Source: a virus (taxonomy: Duplodnaviria; Heunggongvirae; Uroviricota; Caudoviricetes). Taken from it: a stretch of DNA of 12,432 nt. Location of the stretch: the IMG/VR virus record IMGVR_UViG_2909246061_000008. One strand, written 5' to 3'. The notes under the pieces are model-generated. The model was not told where the DNA came from and did not search any database. It saw only the letters and a program-made list of their open reading frames with translations. Every line of letters starts with the position of its first letter. Within the stretch, counting starts at the first letter, position 1. Positions 1 to 9,718 of this stretch are shown piece by piece. The position numbers and the translations under genes were made by a program.

Positions 1-411
1 ATGCCTGCCCCCGTCGTCCTGATCCTTGCGGCCGGGCGTGGAGAGCGCTTTCTCGCCTCCGGGGGAAATACCCATAAGTGTATCGGCTGGCGTCAGTCCC
101 CGGAGGTTGCGCCTTATCGCTGGCCATTTGAAGAAAACGGGAGAACTTTCGACCTTGCGATTGAACCGCAGATTACGACTAATGATCTGCGTCTGATGTT
201 GAGGCTGGCTCTTGCCGGCGGAGGAATAACAATTGCCACTCAGGAAACTTTCAGGCCATATATTGAAAGCGGTAAGCTTGTATCGCTGCTTGATGACTTT
301 CTTCCACAATTTCCGGGCTTCTATCTGTATTTCCCACAGCGTCGCAATATTGCACCAAAGCTCCGCGCCCTGATTGATTACGTCAAAGAATGGCGGCAGC
401 AATTGGCTTAA
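1..411 (+). CDS. LysR-family transcriptional regulator, C-terminal (effector-binding) portion; probably 5'-partial at the window edge
   Basis: ORF runs from base 1 to a stop at 409-411. The C-terminal pattern (FDLAIEPQITTNDLRLMLRLALAGGGITIATQETFRPYIESGKLVSLLDDF...) matches the typical end of a LysR substrate-binding domain. No helix-turn-helix N-terminus is present, so the gene most likely begins upstream of the window. G+C is host-like. Confidence 0.6.
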   Translation: MPAPVVLILAAGRGERFLASGGNTHKCIGWRQSPEVAPYRWPFEENGRTFDLAIEPQITTNDLRLMLRLALAGGGITIATQETFRPYIESGKLVSLLDDFLPQFPGFYLYFPQRRNIAPKLRALIDYVKEWRQQLA

Positions 412-670
412 ATGTCTGCACCTGCACTGCCTGATGTCAGAACAGTATTTTGATGAATTGCCAAGGTTACAATGGCACAAATACGGCACAGGAGGAAACG
501 TGGTGTATTTAAATATGGGGTAACTCTTTGATTTTAATGGTGCGATAATAGGAGTGAATATTACAAGCTAACACATTGATTTGTAATACATTATAATATT
601 CAAAAAATATAACTATACACATATCTATACACACTGCGTGTGTCGCTTGTTTTTCGCACAATTAAAAATA

Positions 671-795
671 AGAAAAAAAATTTTTTTCGAAAGAACTGTT
701 CACACTGTTCACCTTTCTGTTTTCTCCTTTTATTTCAGAGTGATAGGTGGTGAATAATGGGTGAAGGGTGAACATTCGATTCTTCACCTCCGGCA
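671..795. repeat. crr-like direct repeat, copy 1
   Basis: Aligns by eye with copy 2 at roughly 85-90% identity; contains three TGTTCACC-type octamers in both orientations. Confidence 0.7.
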
Positions 796-851
796 TTCTG
801 CCGGTGTGACTCATACCGGTGATTAATCCCCCGTACTGAAATCACTCAGGA

Positions 852-975
852 AGAAAAAAGTTTTTTTTGATTTGATTGTTCACACTGTTCACCTTTCGTT
901 TTTCTCTTTTAATTTCAGTATGATAACGGGTGAATATACGGTGAAGGGTGAACAGTGGATTGTTCACCTGCGGGG
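852..975. repeat. crr-like direct repeat, copy 2
   Basis: Aligns with copy 1; contains TGTTCACC at 886-893 and 961-968 and GGTGAACA at 947-954. Confidence 0.7.
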
Positions 976-986
976 GATATCGGGAT

Positions 987-1011
987 AAAAAAAGACCGGC
1001 AGATGCCGGTC
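987..1011 (-). terminator. Rho-independent terminator downstream of the alpha-like gene
   Basis: Stem GACCGGC (994-1000) pairs with GCCGGTC (1005-1011) around a 4-nt loop. On the minus strand the hairpin is followed by a T7 run (plus-strand A-run 987-993). It sits 17 bp past the alpha-like stop at 1028. Confidence 0.6.
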
Positions 1012-1027
1012 AGGTGGGTCATGAGGG

Positions 1028-2674
1028 TCAGGTTGTTGCAGGGTCGTCACATTTTGGCAGCCAGTCGCCGTAGCTTTCCTCTTTCAGCGTCAGGTTGGTC
1101 TGTATCCCCTGTTTGGTATGGCGCTTCTCGTAATTCAGTCCGTATTCCTTCAGCATCACCGGCAGCCCCAGCCCGAACATTTTCAGACTGAGTACATTCC
1201 GGTAGCCGTTTGCCTCCATGTAGGCCAGATAGGCGTGATAGAGGTATTTACGGTAATTACGCGGGATGATACTGGCGTTCCCCATATACATGCCGCTGGT
1301 CTGCGGCAGGGTTTCCAGATAGCCGATAAAATCAAACGTCGGGTCGGCATCCCGTTTGATGTTCAGCGCCTCGTCTGAGTTCTGCTGGGACTGAAGCAGT
1401 GACCGGGCGAGCATCGGGTCGCTGAACTTCTGCATCAGGTGACGCACGATGACCGCCAGCTCGCGGGTGATTTTGTCCTTAAGCTGCGGGTCGCGCTCCT
1501 GCGGGGCTATCTGTTCCGGGAAGTGAATAATCACCCGCCGGCGTGACACGCCGCCGCTGCGGTCGGTGAAGCGCATCGGGTTATTGTTCACGGCCAGAAT
1601 TACCGCCGGGATATGCGTGGAGTACGCATCCCGGTATTTCGGGTCCACGGACACCGCATCGCCGCCGGTGATGGCCTTGAGTCCGGCACCGTCGCCGCTC
1701 CATTTTTCCTGGTCCGGCAGGCGTATCAGTGAGAAGCCAGTTAACGCGGCACGTTCACGCGGGGATTCCAGCGTCTCGATGGTGGCCGACGTGGCGTTAT
1801 CCTCCCCGGCCAGCAGGGTGGCTATTTCGGCCATGATACTTTTGCCGCTGCCGCCGGGACCGGTCACCTCCAGAAAGAGCTGCCAGTCGTAGCGGTTTGC
1901 CAGCACCATAAACAGTGCGGCCAGAATCACGTCGCGTTTTTCCGCACGGCCACCGGCGGCACGGTCAAGCCAGCGCCAGAACGCGGGGGCGTGGGTTTCC
2001 AGCGTTTCCCCTTCCACCGGCGGGGTGAAATCCACATCGCACAGGGTGCGCATCCAGTGTGACGGACTGTGCGGGTGGAACGTGCCGTTCTGCGTGTCGA
2101 GCACGCCGTTACGAAAGCCAATCAGGCGGCGGGAGGGGGCTTCCTGCTGCGGAATAATCAGCTTCAGGGTGTCCACCACGGAGGCCACCTTCCCGGAGGA
2201 GAACGGCGCACGCAGCCGCTGAAACAGCCCGGCCACATCCCGGGCAAAGTCCTGTGGCGGCAGCACCTTCCAGACACCATTTTCATAGCGGGACAGAAGC
2301 TGGCCGTTGGCATCGACCGCGAGCGCCTCGCCGTAATGCTCATAGATACGCATGGCCTTTTCGCTGGTACTCATGGCGGAAAACTCCGCTTCGCTCATGG
2401 TGTCGAACGGGCTTTCAGCCGGTGGCCGGATGGCATCATAAATGGCCTTACGGGTGGCTTCCCCGCCGTACTGCGTGAAGGCATCATTCCAGTCACCGAA
2501 GACCGGCGGCAGGGCAACAACACCCTCACACGCATCTGCGGCTGCGGCGGCTTTTTTCTGGCCGTCACCGCTGAGGTCACGGTCTGCGGCAAGGACAATC
2601 TGACAGGCCGGATGCTTCTGCCGGGCAAGGCTGGCCAGAGAAAGGAGGTTCACGGAAGAAAGCGCCACCATCAC
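1028..2674 (-). CDS. P4 alpha-like primase/helicase, N-terminally truncated (TOPRIM remnant + SF3 helicase + C-terminal domain); possibly a pseudogene
   Basis: 548-aa ORF with a TOPRIM-like LAADRD motif near its start, Walker A GPGGSGKS, and an SF3-type motif C (ILAVNNNP). The reading frame stays open upstream to a stop at 2759-2761 (about 28 more codons) without reaching a primase N-terminal domain or a convincing start; the annotated start is GTG/ATG at 2674/2671. High G+C (~60%+). Adjacent to TGTTCACC iterons. Confidence 0.75.
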   Translation of the reverse strand: MMVALSSVNLLSLASLARQKHPACQIVLAADRDLSGDGQKKAAAAADACEGVVALPPVFGDWNDAFTQYGGEATRKAIYDAIRPPAESPFDTMSEAEFSAMSTSEKAMRIYEHYGEALAVDANGQLLSRYENGVWKVLPPQDFARDVAGLFQRLRAPFSSGKVASVVDTLKLIIPQQEAPSRRLIGFRNGVLDTQNGTFHPHSPSHWMRTLCDVDFTPPVEGETLETHAPAFWRWLDRAAGGRAEKRDVILAALFMVLANRYDWQLFLEVTGPGGSGKSIMAEIATLLAGEDNATSATIETLESPRERAALTGFSLIRLPDQEKWSGDGAGLKAITGGDAVSVDPKYRDAYSTHIPAVILAVNNNPMRFTDRSGGVSRRRVIIHFPEQIAPQERDPQLKDKITRELAVIVRHLMQKFSDPMLARSLLQSQQNSDEALNIKRDADPTFDFIGYLETLPQTSGMYMGNASIIPRNYRKYLYHAYLAYMEANGYRNVLSLKMFGLGLPVMLKEYGLNYEKRHTKQGIQTNLTLKEESYGDWLPKCDDPATT

Positions 2675-2895
2675 CGTTTCACCGGTCAGGTGATGTACGG
2701 TACCATAACTGTAGTGAATGTCTGTTATGAGCGAGGGGCGGAAGTTCGGAATGCATACTTACTTCGATGTGTGTTAAGCAATGGGGGCAGGTCGGCAATT
2801 TATTGTAAAAGCGATAACACTAACAGCATTAGTGAAGAGGCTAAAGATTTGTTTAGAACCCGCCCCCTTAAGAGGCGGTATTCTTGGCAAACATT

Positions 2896-5800
2896 TTATT
2901 TACTGTTTATCAATTGCAATAATGGGATCTCAGCTACATCACTAGGAATATAGGGGTCATCTTCTTTTAAATTAACCCCAATACAATCAACATCATTTAA
3001 CCCAATTTCCCAAGCCCACCTAACATCTAACGTACTCATTTCTATCCCTAAACTATCTCTTTGTGGATGCTCAGGAACAATATTTTTTAACATCGCATCA
3101 CATCCAAGATAGAATTTTCCACAGGCCTGATACGCAGCAAGAAATCTTTCTAAATTGACGTTACTATCAGGAGTCATCGTATTAATTCTACTGATCATTG
3201 TCATTCTTTTAGTTAATGGCGTTGTCATCATATTTTCAGATATCAGCACTCTATAATGATTTGGGTTTTTAACTGAAATACCCTTGACAATACAAACCCG
3301 TAATCTGGCTTTACTATCTACCAAGCCTACTGATGATATAAGATCTTTAAAAATATCCTCACCTATATTGGGGTGTTTAAATAATAGATATAACCCTGGA
3401 TAACACGATTTTAATTGAGCGAAGCCTACTCCTTGCCAGCGTGTTCTATCCCATAGACGAGGCTTGATTAGACTTTGTATTGAATAATCTTTATGCGTTA
3501 TATTTTCGGAATTAAGTTCCTCTTCAGGCATTATTCCTTTACCAGGTGTTGGAACATTTACATCCTCGATCTCCAACACTTTCGGAAATTCACTATCCCA
3601 GGGTTTATCTCTTAAAAGAGGGTAAGTTTTCTTTTCAGCACTGGTGGAATAAATTTTCTTAATTTGTTGATCAATATCATTTCCAAGAACATTTTCAATA
3701 GCTTTGATACAGGCACCGAAACTAATTGCTCTGTCAAATGCAGCATCTTCGAATATCATTCTTTCAATGTATTCTGTATTTTTTGTAAAAAATAACTCAG
3801 GGAGAAGATCAAATACTATTTTCTTGAATTCATTAGTAATTTTTTGTTGAGCATCGACTCTAAATGAACTTGTTTCAAAACCATTGCAATTTATAGTAAG
3901 GTTTAGTTTTCCATTATTGCTATTTATTTCATGTGATAAGGAGAAGTCATCTTCATCATCTGCTATTACTTCAATAATTAAAAATGCTTCTTTCAGATGG
4001 ATGTTATCAATCGTACAAGTTGCAAAAGCACTCTCTAAAAGCGCTAAGATACTAGTTGAAAACTCTATAAATGGTGACCGATTCGGAAAGTTAATTTCTA
4101 TAGTGCATCCAAAAATAAAAGATGTATATATTCCTCGTTTATCATAGTTATCTTTTATGCCTTTACTATTGAATCCAGCATCAAAGTCACGTATTTCTTG
4201 CAAGAAATCATTATGATCTTTATCGGCAGTAACTTCATACTCATGTTCAAAATTTTCAATATAACCTAAAGCATATTTAAGACATCCAGATGATACAAAA
4301 AGACCTAATCTATCGAGTTCATCGGGAATATTACTCTGTCGATTTATTCCATTTAGGTCAGTGTTCAAAATGAGTTGACTTATGTAAAAATCAACTTGCT
4401 GATTTTCTTTATCGCCGAACGAACTTTCACTGATATTTTGGTTAATTATTAAAAACAGTTCATACCATAAAAGAGCATGTGCTAATTTCCCTAGTTTTAT
4501 TTCTGCCAGGCATAAACTATAATAAATCTCAGCCTGCTTTAATGATATCTCATCATACTTCCAGTAGTTATCTGTAATCAAAGAAGCGGATAGAAGCAAG
4601 CATGAACGTGAACTCCATAGCAACCCAATGGATTCGTAAGCATAAGCAATAGCTTTTAATGCTAATATAAATTTATCTCGTGATTCCTCTTTATAGAGTG
4701 GTATAAATGATTTTCCTAAATACTTGATTGCCTGATAAGGGTGACCATTTTGAATCCTCTTTATACCTCTTCGTAGATTTAATAATGCCCCTTTAACTTC
4801 ACCACCTCTAACAGCAGATTGCTCAGTCATATAGTCTAATAAATTTTCATATGCATCTACCTCGAAAAAAATGTCATCCAGTTCGTTCAAAAGTTGGAAG
4901 TTCTTCTCAAAGGAATAGCCTATTAAATTCCCACTATTTTTAAAAATTTCATGTAACTCTTCAAATACAACCGAAGCATCTTCTACATCTGAAAACGTTG
5001 TCAATTTATAAATAGCTTTGTGAGTTCTCGCTGTGAGTGCATTACTGGGACGTGATTCATCGTCAGCTATCTCATCTAGTTTAGCGAGCATGTTACGTTC
5101 AATATTCTCAATATCGATTGTAGATGTTGCGTTGTTAAGTCTAATATAACTTTTATGAACGGTTACTAAATTTAAAACTTTCTCCCATTTTGAGGAATTA
5201 GTTGATGATGCAATACTTTCATATGCAAATTGAAGATTTTCTTCAAAGAGATTAAAATCTTCCATCCAAAAATGAGACTTCCAGGCATATTGATAATACG
5301 CATCTAGCAATTGTTGATTAGTCCCGAATTTCTTTGATATTTTTATAGCTCTTTCAAATAGACCTTGTGTTTCAATTAGTGGTTTCTCAAGTTCAGCGCT
5401 TAACTCTGCAATTTCTAAAAAAATATCCACCTGTTCATATGAAATTTCAGCAGGGTTTATTTTCTCTCTAATATACTCGGTTAACTCTTCATATTTTTTA
5501 TGCTTTTTATAATCATTTTCTCCAAAAATAACTTCTCTTTTATATTGCGTTGGAACTGACAATGAATCAATGGCCAATTGCTCAAAATTATTTTTGTAAA
5601 TTTGATCTAATAGCCAATTAATATCTAATATACGAACATCTATTCCAGTTTTTGTTTTTAGTGTATCCTCAACCTCTGAACGAATATTGGACTTTGCAGA
5701 CTGGTTCGTTACGCAAAATACTTTAGCATACCCACGTTCTGTTTCTTTTATCTTAAGTACATCTTCATGGCATTTTTTCTTCCAGTCTTTACGTGTACTT

Positions 5801-6147
5801 ACCGCAAAGGCCCAGCGTTCTCTATTTGATGCTTCATTAACGCCTTCGAACCAAAGAAGCTTATTCTGTTCTGAAACAGGGAATGTTTGTGTGTCAGTTT
5901 TACCATCCCCCCCTGCTACAGGGCCAGTTTGTTCAAGGAGATTAGGGCAAATTATTTTTTCACATATTTTTTTTGCAAAATCTTCGAATTGTAGTTCTTG
6001 ATTTCTTGTATTTAGCGTAGAGAGGAAGTGTTCCAGTACAACTCTGTCTAAAGTACCAGTCTCTCTGATTGTTGAATCAGAAAATTTTTCAGGGCGACGG
6101 CGCCTTAGAAATTCTTTAGATGAAAATTTGGTTTTCTGTACATTCAT
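2896..6147 (-). CDS. Large hypothetical protein (1083 aa) encoded in a low-G+C cargo block; function unknown, candidate stand-alone defence/abortive-infection protein
   Basis: Single uninterrupted 3252-nt ORF. G+C is about 30-35% against ~55-65% in the flanks. A GAGGAG Shine-Dalgarno lies ~10 nt upstream of the ATG at 6147-6145, which overlaps the stop of the truncated stf (ATGA). Composition is Lys/Glu/Asn/Ile/Phe-rich, with helical repeat-like stretches in the middle. No Walker A (GxxxxGK[ST]) was found. The N-terminus carries GPVAGGDGKTD (aa 75-85), weakly reminiscent of an Mrr-type nuclease motif. Confidence 0.8.
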   Translation of the reverse strand: MNVQKTKFSSKEFLRRRRPEKFSDSTIRETGTLDRVVLEHFLSTLNTRNQELQFEDFAKKICEKIICPNLLEQTGPVAGGDGKTDTQTFPVSEQNKLLWFEGVNEASNRERWAFAVSTRKDWKKKCHEDVLKIKETERGYAKVFCVTNQSAKSNIRSEVEDTLKTKTGIDVRILDINWLLDQIYKNNFEQLAIDSLSVPTQYKREVIFGENDYKKHKKYEELTEYIREKINPAEISYEQVDIFLEIAELSAELEKPLIETQGLFERAIKISKKFGTNQQLLDAYYQYAWKSHFWMEDFNLFEENLQFAYESIASSTNSSKWEKVLNLVTVHKSYIRLNNATSTIDIENIERNMLAKLDEIADDESRPSNALTARTHKAIYKLTTFSDVEDASVVFEELHEIFKNSGNLIGYSFEKNFQLLNELDDIFFEVDAYENLLDYMTEQSAVRGGEVKGALLNLRRGIKRIQNGHPYQAIKYLGKSFIPLYKEESRDKFILALKAIAYAYESIGLLWSSRSCLLLSASLITDNYWKYDEISLKQAEIYYSLCLAEIKLGKLAHALLWYELFLIINQNISESSFGDKENQQVDFYISQLILNTDLNGINRQSNIPDELDRLGLFVSSGCLKYALGYIENFEHEYEVTADKDHNDFLQEIRDFDAGFNSKGIKDNYDKRGIYTSFIFGCTIEINFPNRSPFIEFSTSILALLESAFATCTIDNIHLKEAFLIIEVIADDEDDFSLSHEINSNNGKLNLTINCNGFETSSFRVDAQQKITNEFKKIVFDLLPELFFTKNTEYIERMIFEDAAFDRAISFGACIKAIENVLGNDIDQQIKKIYSTSAEKKTYPLLRDKPWDSEFPKVLEIEDVNVPTPGKGIMPEEELNSENITHKDYSIQSLIKPRLWDRTRWQGVGFAQLKSCYPGLYLLFKHPNIGEDIFKDLISSVGLVDSKARLRVCIVKGISVKNPNHYRVLISENMMTTPLTKRMTMISRINTMTPDSNVNLERFLAAYQACGKFYLGCDAMLKNIVPEHPQRDSLGIEMSTLDVRWAWEIGLNDVDCIGVNLKEDDPYIPSDVAEIPLLQLINSK

Positions 6148-7571
6148 GATTTTGACGCTCCTCTTGCTATCCCCTTTTTCGTCGTACTTGCATCCTCAAG
6201 CGCCACGGCGGATGCAATATCCTCTGCCCGTTTTGCCGCTGTCTCGGCGCGCGTTGCCGCGGATTCCGCCGTACTTTTGCTCTGTGCTGCCGCCGTCGCA
6301 CTGCCAGCTGCCTCTGTCGCCTTCGTGGATGCTGTCGTGGCGCTGCCCTTCGCTGCGGACGCTTGTCTGGTCGCCTCATCTTTTGAAGCAGACGCCGATG
6401 ATGCCGATGACGCCGCCGAACTGGCGGACGATGCCGCTGCCGTTTTTGAGGATTCTGCGCTGGTTTCCGACGCTTTCGCGTTCGTCTCGGATGTCTTCGC
6501 TGCGGAAGCAGACCTCGCTGCTGCGCTGGCCTGTTCAGTGGCTTCGCCAGCCTTCGTTGTGGCTGTTGAAGCAGACGATGCGGCACTTTCTGCCGATTTT
6601 CCGGCGGCGGTGGCACTGGCTGAGGCCTGCCCGGCACTTGTTGACGCGGCACTGGCAGACGACGCAGCCGCTGTTTTTGAGCCTGCCGCAGCCGAGGCGC
6701 TCTGTCCCGCTGCCGTTTCAGAAGACCTGGCGTTTGTCTCAGACGTCTTTGCCGCCTTCGCGGAATTGCCTGCCGCCGTTGCCGAGGAAGCGGCACTACT
6801 GGCGCTTGATGATGCGTTCGTTTCTGATGATTTCGCTGCCTCTTTTGAGGCCGCCGCATCCCGGGCTGAGGTGGCTGCTTCTGACGCCTTCGTGGTCGCG
6901 GCGGATGCAGAAGTGGCTGCTGATTGTTGTGACGCTGCCGCATTCGTTTCTGACGTTTTCGCCGCACCGGCACTGGTAGCTGCCGCGCTTTTTGAGGACT
7001 CTGCAGCAGCAGCACTTTTCGATGCTTCACTGGCCTTTGTTGATGCCGTTCCTGCGCTGGAAGTCGCTGACTGAGCCGACGACGCGGCCTGTCCGGCTGA
7101 CGTGCTGGCTGCGCGTGCTGAGCCTGCAGCATCAGTCGCATGGGTTGCCGCCTCACGGGCTGATGTGCTGGCATCACTGGCTGACTTCTTCGCGGCTGCC
7201 GTGTTCTGTGCCACCACGGACGCGTTACGCGCCACCTCTTCCACCATCAGCTCAAAACGGCGCAGTGCCTCCGGACGGGCATCATCCTCCGTCATGGCAC
7301 CGAGAAAATCATTCAGCGTACCGGGTCGGGAATCTTCATACACGGTAATGGTCCCGGCATGTGACGGCGGGAATCCTTCCACCAACAGACTGACGCTGTA
7401 CTGACCGTACTCAACGTCCATACTGTAACGCCCGGCTTCATCCGGATTTTCTGAGGCCAGCGTATTCACCACCACCGTGGTGCTGTTACGTTTTGCTTTC
7501 AGCTGGATTGTGCAGTTCTGTACCGGTTTTCCTGTGCCGTCTTTCAGTACACCTGAAATCTTTACTGCCAT
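6144..7571 (-). CDS. stf: Lambdoid side tail fibre protein Stf, N-terminal fragment, C-terminally truncated with 7 novel terminal codons
   Basis: N-terminus MAVKISGVLKDGTGKPVQNCTIQLKA... matches my recollection of lambda Stf, followed by an Ala/Ser/Thr-rich low-complexity region. Similarity ends after ...EDASTTKKGI; the tail ARGASKS is encoded by the junction sequence. ATG at 7571-7569 is preceded by a GGGGTGA Shine-Dalgarno; the ORF track's longer form starts at GTG 7577. Confidence 0.8.
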   Translation of the reverse strand: MAVKISGVLKDGTGKPVQNCTIQLKAKRNSTTVVVNTLASENPDEAGRYSMDVEYGQYSVSLLVEGFPPSHAGTITVYEDSRPGTLNDFLGAMTEDDARPEALRRFELMVEEVARNASVVAQNTAAAKKSASDASTSAREAATHATDAAGSARAASTSAGQAASSAQSATSSAGTASTKASEASKSAAAAESSKSAAATSAGAAKTSETNAAASQQSAATSASAATTKASEAATSARDAAASKEAAKSSETNASSSASSAASSATAAGNSAKAAKTSETNARSSETAAGQSASAAAGSKTAAASSASAASTSAGQASASATAAGKSAESAASSASTATTKAGEATEQASAAARSASAAKTSETNAKASETSAESSKTAAASSASSAASSASSASASKDEATRQASAAKGSATTASTKATEAAGSATAAAQSKSTAESAATRAETAAKRAEDIASAVALEDASTTKKGIARGASKS

Positions 7572-7582
7572 ATTCACCCCAC

Positions 7583-8304: not shown

Positions 8305-8697
8305 TCAACGAATACTGATGCCGGAAGCGACTTTTTTGGTCACAATCACCGTACAGTCGGTGATATTACCTGCCCACTGATTGCCTTTATGGAAAACCTT
8401 AAACTCCAGAGTGACGCTTCCCCTGCCACTCGGCATATCAATAATCGCACTGTAGCTACCGGGAAGACGGGCTGATAATTCATTTTCGCCTGCATCACGC
8501 CCGGCAATGCGCACCTGATACCAGCCCTCATTCACTTTCTGGCGAAACGACGGAAGCTGCGTGGCCAGCGCCCGGATGGCTTCGGCCCCCGTTTTCACAC
8601 GAAGGTCGATGCGGTGGCCAAATCGTTGTAAATCCCCGTAAAGGCAGATGCGTGCCATGCCCGGTGACGCCAGAGGGAGTGTGTGCGTCGCTGCCAT
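8305..8697 (-). CDS. Lambdoid tail assembly protein I, N-terminal ~80 aa joined to an unrelated ~50-aa C-terminus; J is absent
   Basis: The first ~80 residues (MAATHTLPLASPGMARICLYGDLQRFG...WYQVRIAGRD) match my recollection of lambda gpI, then the sequence diverges (AGENELSARLPGSY...VASGISIR). The ORF is 130 aa against ~223 expected. No J-sized ORF lies between it and lom. Confidence 0.65.
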   Translation of the reverse strand: MAATHTLPLASPGMARICLYGDLQRFGHRIDLRVKTGAEAIRALATQLPSFRQKVNEGWYQVRIAGRDAGENELSARLPGSYSAIIDMPSGRGSVTLEFKVFHKGNQWAGNITDCTVIVTKKVASGISIR

Positions 8698-9347
8698 TTG
8701 TCGGTATACCTCTCTCGTTTGCTCAGTTGTTCAGGAATATGGTGCAACAGCTCGCCGTCGCCGCAGTAAATGGCGGCATGATTCGGCACCGATGAACCAA
8801 AACAGCACAGCAGCACATCGCCCGGTTGTGCTGATGACAACGGCACCTGATACAGCCCTGTGGCCTCCAGATTATCCAGATAGAGATTCTGACCGTGACG
8901 CCACCAGTCATCCCCGCGATGAAAATCCGGCATCTCAATTCCCGCCAGATGGTAAGCATCCCGGAACAGCGTGTAACAGTCCGTCACCCCGTGCTCAAAG
9001 CGCCGCCCGGTGAGATGCGGCACACAGCGGAATTTATGAATCGCCCCCCGGCAGACCAGCCACCACGGCAAATCACTCTGCACCTGCAGCCGCCGGTCGG
9101 TCTCACTCAGCCAGGGCAGACCACCGGGGTGGCTGTGGACCAGCGCCACAATCTCACCCTGCATCTCTGCCCGCAGCCAGTCCTCCGGCGACATCCGGAA
9201 ATACTCCTCCGGCTCACCGGAGATATTCACGCAGGGAAAATATCTTTCCCCCTCCGGTGTTCTCACCACGAAGCCGCACGACTCCGCTGGCGCACATCGC
9301 CGGGCGTGCGCCAGAATCGCTGATTCTGTCTCTGTCATGGGATTCAC
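8595..9347 (-). CDS. Lambdoid tail assembly protein K (JAB/MPN + NlpC/P60 domains)
   Basis: HSHPGG (JAB-like) motif and a Cys/His pair (..DCYTLF.., ..PNHAAIY..) typical of NlpC/P60. Near-lambda-like by recollection. GTG at 9347 overlaps the L stop (GTGA); an alternative ATG lies at 9338. The 3' end overlaps the I start by ~100 nt, as in lambda. Confidence 0.85.
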   Translation of the reverse strand: MNPMTETESAILAHARRCAPAESCGFVVRTPEGERYFPCVNISGEPEEYFRMSPEDWLRAEMQGEIVALVHSHPGGLPWLSETDRRLQVQSDLPWWLVCRGAIHKFRCVPHLTGRRFEHGVTDCYTLFRDAYHLAGIEMPDFHRGDDWWRHGQNLYLDNLEATGLYQVPLSSAQPGDVLLCCFGSSVPNHAAIYCGDGELLHHIPEQLSKRERYTDKWQRRTHSLWRHRAWHASAFTGIYNDLATASTFV

Positions 9348-9718
9348 TGCGAAAGTTTGTTAATGGAAAGGAAGCCGCCAAAGTTGCCGACGTTATTGCG
9401 AAACTTACAGCCGCTCAGGCATTTGCTGCATTTATCCTTCGTGATATCGGACGTCGGCTGATCATATTCATCCGCGACCGCCGGACCGTGATAACCGCAC
9501 TCATCACCGCGATAGGTCCAGGTGCAGGTGTTGGCCAGCATGATACGTCCCGGAAAAACGGCACCGTCCGTTTCCGTCGGCGTGGACAGTACAAAAGAGG
9601 CACTCACCGCGCTCAGTTCGCTGCACTGCTCGATGCGCCAGCGGCTGATCACCTCCTGCTCCGGATCGGCGTCACTGTTTCCGTTGACGAAGTTCACCGC
9701 ATCCAGATACCGTCCTTT
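9344..9718 (-). pseudogene. Lambdoid minor tail protein L, 5'-truncated (C-terminal ~125 codons only)
   Basis: Translation (K)GRYLDAVNFVNGNSDADPEQEVISRWRIEQ...FGGFLSINKLSQ matches the C-terminal part of lambda L as I recall it. An in-frame stop at 9719-9721 cuts off the N-terminal half, and the similarity ends exactly where the inverted repeat begins. Confidence 0.7.

Follow-up and report, generated by a model that had tools for sequence, protein, structure and literature searches.

A 5′-truncated P4 alpha gene beside its iterons at the Escherichia coli thrW locus is very probably a silent, recent deletion pseudogene

The alpha protein of satellite phage P4 (gp-alpha, NP_042036) is a primase-helicase-origin binding protein of 777 residues that combines a DnaG-type primase, a superfamily 3 (SF3) helicase and a winged helix (PMC2777425). 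Elements related to P4 are also found in decayed form. In defective P4-like islands, termed ‘uncharacteristic genomic regions’, the primase is the core gene that is most often pseudogenised (PMC13586616), and PMC8628076, with its type B/C sets, likewise depicts decaying variants; both agree with the random decay described below. Here we analyse a stretch of DNA of 12,432 nucleotides (IMG/VR record IMGVR_UViG_2909246061_000008; ‘the window’ refers to this whole stretch) that carries a 5′-truncated alpha reading frame, which we call alpha′, next to P4 iterons. Comparison with intact relatives indicates that alpha′ is, with high probability, a silent and recent deletion pseudogene of a P4 satellite.

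A truncated P4 alpha in a defective P4-like island is not new in itself, as alpha′ is already annotated and the phenomenon is already in the literature. The locus shares with the published defective islands (PMC13586616; PMC8628076) the same kind of tRNA-site element, the deletion of core genes and a primase pseudogene. It differs in what survives: the published islands keep the defence hotspot near the integrase gene (int), whereas the window keeps only the distal end of the element, comprising an attachment site (att) remnant, the cis replication region (crr) and alpha′. Also unlike the published islands, the cargo gene that adjoins the remnant in the window, which encodes 1083 amino acids, belongs to a different, neighbouring island. 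Although alpha′ is of little importance in itself, it provides a clean, datable example of the way in which a P4-like satellite decays, here by one illegitimate deletion that spans the border between two elements integrated in tandem.

Alpha′ lacks the first 220 residues of P4 alpha

The original prediction, made from the DNA letters and their open reading frames (ORFs), described an alpha-like gene without its primase domain that keeps its helicase and carboxy-terminal domain beside its iterons. An ORF reading reproduced the frame on which that description rested. It is open on the minus strand from a stop codon at 2759–2761 down to a stop codon at 1028–1030, and its translation contains the motifs LAADRD, GPGGSGKS and AVNNNP. 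Translation could start no earlier than at GTG 2674 or ATG 2671, start-like codons that would yield proteins of 548 or 547 amino acids, respectively.

Profile searches and alignments agree on which domains are whole. Pfam matches comprise Toprim_3, D5_N (E = 3.5e-12), DUF5906 (the SF3 P-loop core; E = 1.7e-09) and Pox_D5 (E = 2.1e-16), and the NCBIfam model TIGR01613 (‘phage/plasmid primase, P4 family’) scores 109.8 bits, just above its cut-off of 108.7. The C-terminal 100 residues match the origin-binding winged helix of P4 (PDB 1ka8) over 100 of 100 residues (E = 5.2e-64). Alpha′ therefore has the D5_N domain and SF3 helicase core, with Walker A (GPGGSGKS) and motif C (AVNNNP), by which primase-helicases of the P4 alpha type are recognised, as well as their C-terminal winged-helix origin-binding domain. 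PADLOC returned no match for the protein.

The primase portion is a different matter. Pfam finds no Zn_Ribbon_Prim domain in alpha′, whereas intact P4 alpha has one at residues 30–66. Neither Pfam nor the alignment reveals a full TOPRIM domain with the catalytic Glu of EGYATA: the first 18 of the 95 profile positions of Toprim_3 are unmatched, in line with the TOPRIM-like remnant noted in the original prediction, and only the DxD half of the domain is left. The Toprim domain of intact P4 alpha starts at residue 210, and the remnant in alpha′ begins at T221.

Pairwise alignment with P4 alpha, which the original prediction had proposed as a means to define the deletion endpoint, places the break at codon 220/221. 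The alpha′ protein is 99.6% identical to phage P4 alpha (tblastn against phage records), and window positions 674–2702 are colinear with P4 4291–6310 at 98.2% nucleotide identity. The first homologous residue is T221, with the P4 sequence WIAEGYATAL and everything N-terminal to it gone, so that exactly 220 residues are missing, slightly more than the ‘roughly 200’ first estimated. Among them are the zinc ribbon and the first part of TOPRIM, which contains the EGYATA motif. Alpha′ thus corresponds to codons 221–777 of P4 alpha plus the stop codon (1028–2702, minus strand), preceded within the same frame by 19 codons that derive from island rather than alpha DNA and include no start codon (2703–2761, minus strand). 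The two or three amino-acid substitutions that separate alpha′ from P4 alpha are shared with intact alleles such as that of strain MLI110. At the nucleotide level, alpha′ shows 0 differences in 1673 nucleotides from the intact alpha of strain EC-107, and 16–22 differences, nearly all synonymous, from the alpha genes of MLI110 and P4.

Downstream of alpha′ the layout is that of P4. The Rho-independent terminator of alpha, GACCGGCATCTGCCGGTC followed by TTTTTTT, lies at 994–1011 on the minus strand and has its counterpart in the annotated alpha terminator of P4 (4604–4628). Next to it, positions 674–973 align to the annotated crr of P4 (4291–4590) and carry type-1 iterons (GGTGAACA/TGTTCACC). 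As in P4, this region consists of two direct repeats of 120 bp (674–793 and 854–973, 81% alike) separated by 60 bp. Exact GGTGAACA octamers occur five times in crr, against 0.35 expected by chance, and these are the only five in the 12.4-kb window. P4 replication needs crr together with ori, which consists of clusters of type-1 and type-2 repeats and in the P4 record lies about 4.5 kb from crr on the far side of the alpha operon. The window retains crr and has lost the region that bears ori. With neither an ori nor a primase, the locus would be unable to replicate.

The outer end of the element is marked by a distal att remnant at 539–557, TGGTGC-GATAATAGGAGT, which matches the 3′ end of tRNA-Thr (thrW) one base short. 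This copy was read by eye, an ungapped search of the window for the thrW att core having given no match because the copy carries a 1-nt deletion. Homology between the window and a strain that has only the neighbouring island (locus L004) stops at window position 555, within the remnant. A short AT-rich repeat lies between the att remnant and crr, from which strain PSS-10, described below, lacks 12 bp (ATACACATATCT, window 615–626). Neither an Rfam scan at gathering thresholds nor a tRNA scan of the window produced a match.

A single deletion joined alpha to a neighbouring island

The window derives from the E. coli chromosome, at the distal end of an array of islands at the tRNA-Thr gene thrW and beside paoD and a LysR pseudogene. 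At the same position, strains MLI110 and EC-107 carry an intact P4-like satellite of 11.9 kb that abuts tRNA-Thr next to the LysR remnant and paoD. Its genes encode a 777-aa alpha, a cnr-like protein, an epsilon-region protein, an icd-like protein, Sid, Delta, Psu, a Gabija-like hotspot and an integrase. The window is homologous to these two strains over positions 1–2702 and no further. It contains no P4 sequence from upstream of codon 221, and so lacks the 5′ end of alpha, ori and the remaining P4 genes.

The sequence on the other side has a different source. In blastn comparisons, homology to intact alpha (loci L002 and L009, and P4) runs to window position 2702, and homology to an island (L003 and L004) starts at 2701. 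From 2701 onwards the window is 99.9% identical to a separate thrW island of strains EC26 and DETEC-P80. In L003 and L004 that island extends 255 bp beyond this point, as far as its own att boundary, a 46-nt copy of the tRNA-Thr 3′ end. A three-way alignment displays a clean switch from GATGTACGGTA to CCATAACTG, at which the dinucleotide TA (2701–2702) is the only sequence common to both sides, in keeping with the 2-nt overlap of the blastn coordinates. The junction therefore connects alpha codon 220/221 with a point about 255 bp inside the neighbouring island. Since only TA is shared at the switch, the truncation is, by this alignment, an illegitimate deletion at a 2-bp microhomology. Site-specific recombination and an insertion into alpha were both rejected as the cause.

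We infer the following course of events from the separate strains. A P4 satellite prophage would have occupied the far end of a tandem array at thrW until one illegitimate recombination event joined its alpha gene to the neighbouring island. From an ancestor like that of EC-107, which serves here as a proxy, about 9.7 kb of P4 DNA and 255 bp of the neighbour would have been lost. Judging from the intact relatives, the lost stretch of about 10 kb would have contained cnr, orf151, epsilon, cI, ori, sid, delta, psu, the defence hotspot, int and the internal att. What survives of the prophage is its far end, with alpha codons 221–777, the alpha terminator, crr and the distal att remnant.

The hotspot between int and psu of MLI110 and EC-107 (L002 21334–24656 and L009 27335–30657, respectively) holds a Gabija-like pair of genes, for an ATP-dependent nuclease and a UvrD-family helicase, that is absent from the window. 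If the ancestor resembled EC-107, the deletion also threw out this Gabija-like defence system. Strain FCI56 is the reverse case, in which the Gabija-like pair and int remain and nearly all of alpha is lost.

Expression signals of alpha′ are lacking or at chance level

The deletion removed the native start codon of alpha and the region upstream of its operon. In P4, the DNA that is lost here includes the PLE and PLL promoters of the cI-epsilon-cnr-alpha operon. We examined what remains with consensus-level tests for promoters and Shine–Dalgarno pairing. No sigma-70-like promoter site was found by such a test on the minus strand between 2700 and 2900. The best anti-Shine–Dalgarno pairing ahead of GTG 2674 or ATG 2671 is −3.0 kcal/mol, a value matched or bettered by 43% of the start-like codons of the region, compared with −8.9 and −7.1 kcal/mol at two real starts nearby, those of lom and the 1083-aa gene. 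At this level of testing, alpha′ thus does not present the promoter, ribosome-binding site and start codon of an expressed gene. A GC-rich hairpin directly downstream of the 1083-aa gene (2855–2884, minus strand; −20 kcal/mol, z = −2.0) is a likely, if U-poor, terminator that stands before alpha′. Without a catalytic primase motif, its own start codon or the upstream region of its operon, alpha′ is most likely silent.

The allele is young and nearly clonal

Of 5,426 complete E. coli genomes, five carry the alpha′ junction; JSMCR1, EC21Z-063 and PSS-10 are examples of carrier strains. Over 3.1 kb compared in two carriers, E3 and PSS-10, there are no base substitutions; the only differences are the 12-bp indel of PSS-10, which lies outside alpha′, and single-T losses in T-runs at 861 and 2552 in E3. 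The loss at 2552 frameshifts alpha′, although it may be a sequencing error. The exact 547-aa ORF also occurs on 123 contigs (186 index blocks) of a large public collection, and the ten contexts that were viewed all represent the same locus. A metagenome scaffold is 100% identical to window positions 1–7000. To judge from these comparisons, the junction marks one young, near-clonal lineage.

This youth bears on how the open frame is to be read. As alpha′ is nucleotide-identical to an intact allele and belongs to one clone, the openness of its frame is uninformative about selection, and the frame would be intact because there has been too little time for mutations. Comparison of alpha′ with intact alleles by the ratio of nonsynonymous to synonymous substitution (dN/dS) and by private substitutions has no power, given zero differences from EC-107. 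Within the clone, about 6 single-nucleotide polymorphisms in 6 kb were seen, in a comparison that is biased by the retrieval of loci through their exact protein sequence.

Other alpha remnants have scattered breakpoints

A search with full-length alpha found matches in 1,149 genomes, of which 1,062 have at least 80% coverage. The partial matches that were sampled all retain the 3′ end of the gene and start at gene nucleotides 858, 1595, 2083 and 2131. Three of these illustrate the range of outcomes. In MB06022, at the selC site, psu is fused to alpha nucleotide 858; in SRY206, at thrW, a fragment of epsilon is fused to nucleotide 1595; and in FCI56, also at thrW, a Gabija-like helicase gene is followed by the winged helix alone, from nucleotide 2083. 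All three are labelled pseudogenes by PGAP and, like alpha′, have an internal deletion that leaves the att-proximal 3′ end of alpha. No gene lies between alpha and the distal att, so any internal deletion leaves the 3′ end in place.

The breakpoints differ among these remnants, as do the fusion partners: they lie at nucleotides 858, 1595 and 2083, compared with 660 in the window. Only the window allele and MB06022 among the four keep the whole helicase. Such scatter indicates random decay and argues against selection of a helicase-only product. The 5′ and 3′ terminal 659 nucleotides of alpha match 1001 and 1039 records, respectively, at 95% identity or more, which suggests a modest excess of 5′-truncated loci, although this comparison is confounded by unequal divergence of the two ends.

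A pseudogene is favoured over an interfering fragment

The original prediction left two interpretations open: a dead pseudogene, or an expressed helicase and DNA-binding fragment that could bind the adjacent iterons and interfere with the replication of incoming P4-like satellites. The first is favoured by the junction scar, the loss of upstream DNA, the absence of a promoter, Shine–Dalgarno pairing at chance level, restriction to one clone and the scattered breakpoints elsewhere. For the second, the expressed interfering fragment, nothing was found in support.

Several points nevertheless weigh against the pseudogene or for an expressed fragment. The 547-codon reading frame is fully intact and encodes every helicase motif as well as a winged helix that matches 1ka8 throughout. 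The domains that are retained have counterparts in related proteins whose folding and activity are autonomous. For example, the P4 winged helix was crystallised by itself (1ka8), and in a related SF3 helicase-primase, poxvirus D5, a fragment comprising residues 323–785 forms hexamers without the primase (PMC9611036), which points to structural autonomy of such primase-less fragments. Furthermore, the cognate iterons adjoin alpha′, and the frame is co-oriented with the 1083-aa gene upstream. The hairpin between the two lacks a clean U-tract and is not a canonical terminator, so that read-through from the upstream gene is possible. A primase-null alpha is reported to retain helicase and ori-binding activity (Ziegelin et al. 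1995). Finally, the tandem ancestor is inferred from separate strains, and no single genome among the loci inspected has the undeleted arrangement of a P4-like element next to the island with the 1083-aa gene.

The alternative that survives best draws on these points. It holds that alpha′ is made at a low level, for example by read-through from the 1083-aa gene and initiation at M231, and that the product binds type-1 iterons or forms mixed hexamers with incoming alpha, thereby hindering, or with the help of host DnaG partly aiding, the replication of incoming P4-like satellites. We regard this as improbable. The interval ahead of alpha′ offers no promoter-like site and no more than chance pairing for a ribosome. 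The allele is that of a single clone and is nucleotide-identical to an intact one, and therefore gives no evidence of maintenance, whereas one of the five complete genomes carries the 1-nt T-run deletion within alpha′ already noted as a possible sequencing error. Neighbouring genes in the same clone are decaying too, and the remnants elsewhere have mostly lost the helicase as well. The chance that a translated, truncated alpha beside a crr decoy blocks or assists incoming satellites with the same iterons, as a fossil form of satellite-versus-satellite exclusion, is likewise very small. If alpha′ were expressed and affected incoming satellites, it would represent a case of satellite–satellite interference.

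A second alternative, that alpha′ is complete and belongs to a family of naturally shorter, helicase-only proteins, had been named beforehand as the result that would overturn the prediction. An in-frame ATG and the listing of alpha′ by some gene callers as a protein (‘Nucleoside triphosphatase, D5 family’) are compatible with it. However, the protein is nearly identical to residues 221–777 of P4 alpha and falls in a 90%-identity cluster whose representative has 777 amino acids. Its DNA homology to alpha does not begin at a shared natural N-terminus but passes the ATG up to codon 221, where it breaks abruptly into unrelated island DNA, and a headless TOPRIM fragment remains. Alpha′ is thus truly truncated at its 5′ end, and membership of a shorter family has a negligible probability. 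RefSeq/PGAP likewise labels it a pseudogene (‘phage/plasmid primase, P4 family; incomplete; missing N-terminus’). An assembly artefact, for which nothing speaks except that repeat-rich prophage regions are generally prone to misassembly, is just as remote and was ruled out by the identical junction in the five independent complete genomes, from three continents, and in independent draft and metagenome assemblies that include the scaffold identical to window 1–7000.

A recent deletion pseudogene thus remains the preferred reading of alpha′. It carries a caution, that a long intact ORF with perfect helicase motifs beside its iterons can be a very young pseudogene.

The neighbouring island and the remainder of the window are also decaying

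On the other side of the deletion lies the 1083-aa gene of the neighbouring thrW island (2896–6147, minus strand; 33% GC), which is not part of P4. Its protein has no Pfam, NCBIfam or PADLOC match, and has more than 700 full-length homologues across Gammaproteobacteria. A confident AlphaFold model (predicted local distance difference test score 84.5) shows a TPR array in the centre with unassigned alpha/beta domains on either side. Two relatives of the gene were seen in other settings, one in a context resembling a defence island and one in an integrative island.

Within the alpha′ clone the 1083-aa gene has been broken independently at least four times (compared loci L011, L013–L015, L017 and L019). 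Two of the breaks are premature stops, Q149* (5703 G>A) and W904* (3436 C>T, which hits a Trp that is invariant in the family); in the others, IS1 has inserted near 3363 or the N terminus has been cut off at about 6050. This pattern suggests that the gene may be costly or useless in the background of this clone. Only 24 bp of its own upstream sequence is left, and it overlaps the stop codon of a truncated stf ORF (6144–7577). At 6144–6171 the window has 746 bp fewer than strain EC21Z-063 (L001), corresponding to an integrase fragment and part of a tail-fibre gene; this deletion is real, because the metagenome scaffold (L010) has the same structure.

Elsewhere the window is pieced together from fragments of lambdoid tail genes and a CPS-53-like yfdQ-T module. 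In one ORF (8305–8697), the N terminus of tail-assembly protein I runs directly into the C-terminal receptor-binding domain of J, the body of which is deleted. Minor tail protein L (9344–9707) covers only profile positions 89–206 of 206 and abuts the yfdQ-T module, and at the scars of the lambdoid tail module the window lacks 324 bp that L001 has. The region as a whole resembles a prophage graveyard, which fits the reading of alpha′ as a pseudogene.

At the opposite end of the window, directly after paoD, positions 73–411 encode a C-terminal fragment of a LysR-type regulator that consists of the substrate-binding domain only. This fragment is annotated as a pseudogene in all strains examined and marks where the array of thrW islands has its fixed outer limit.

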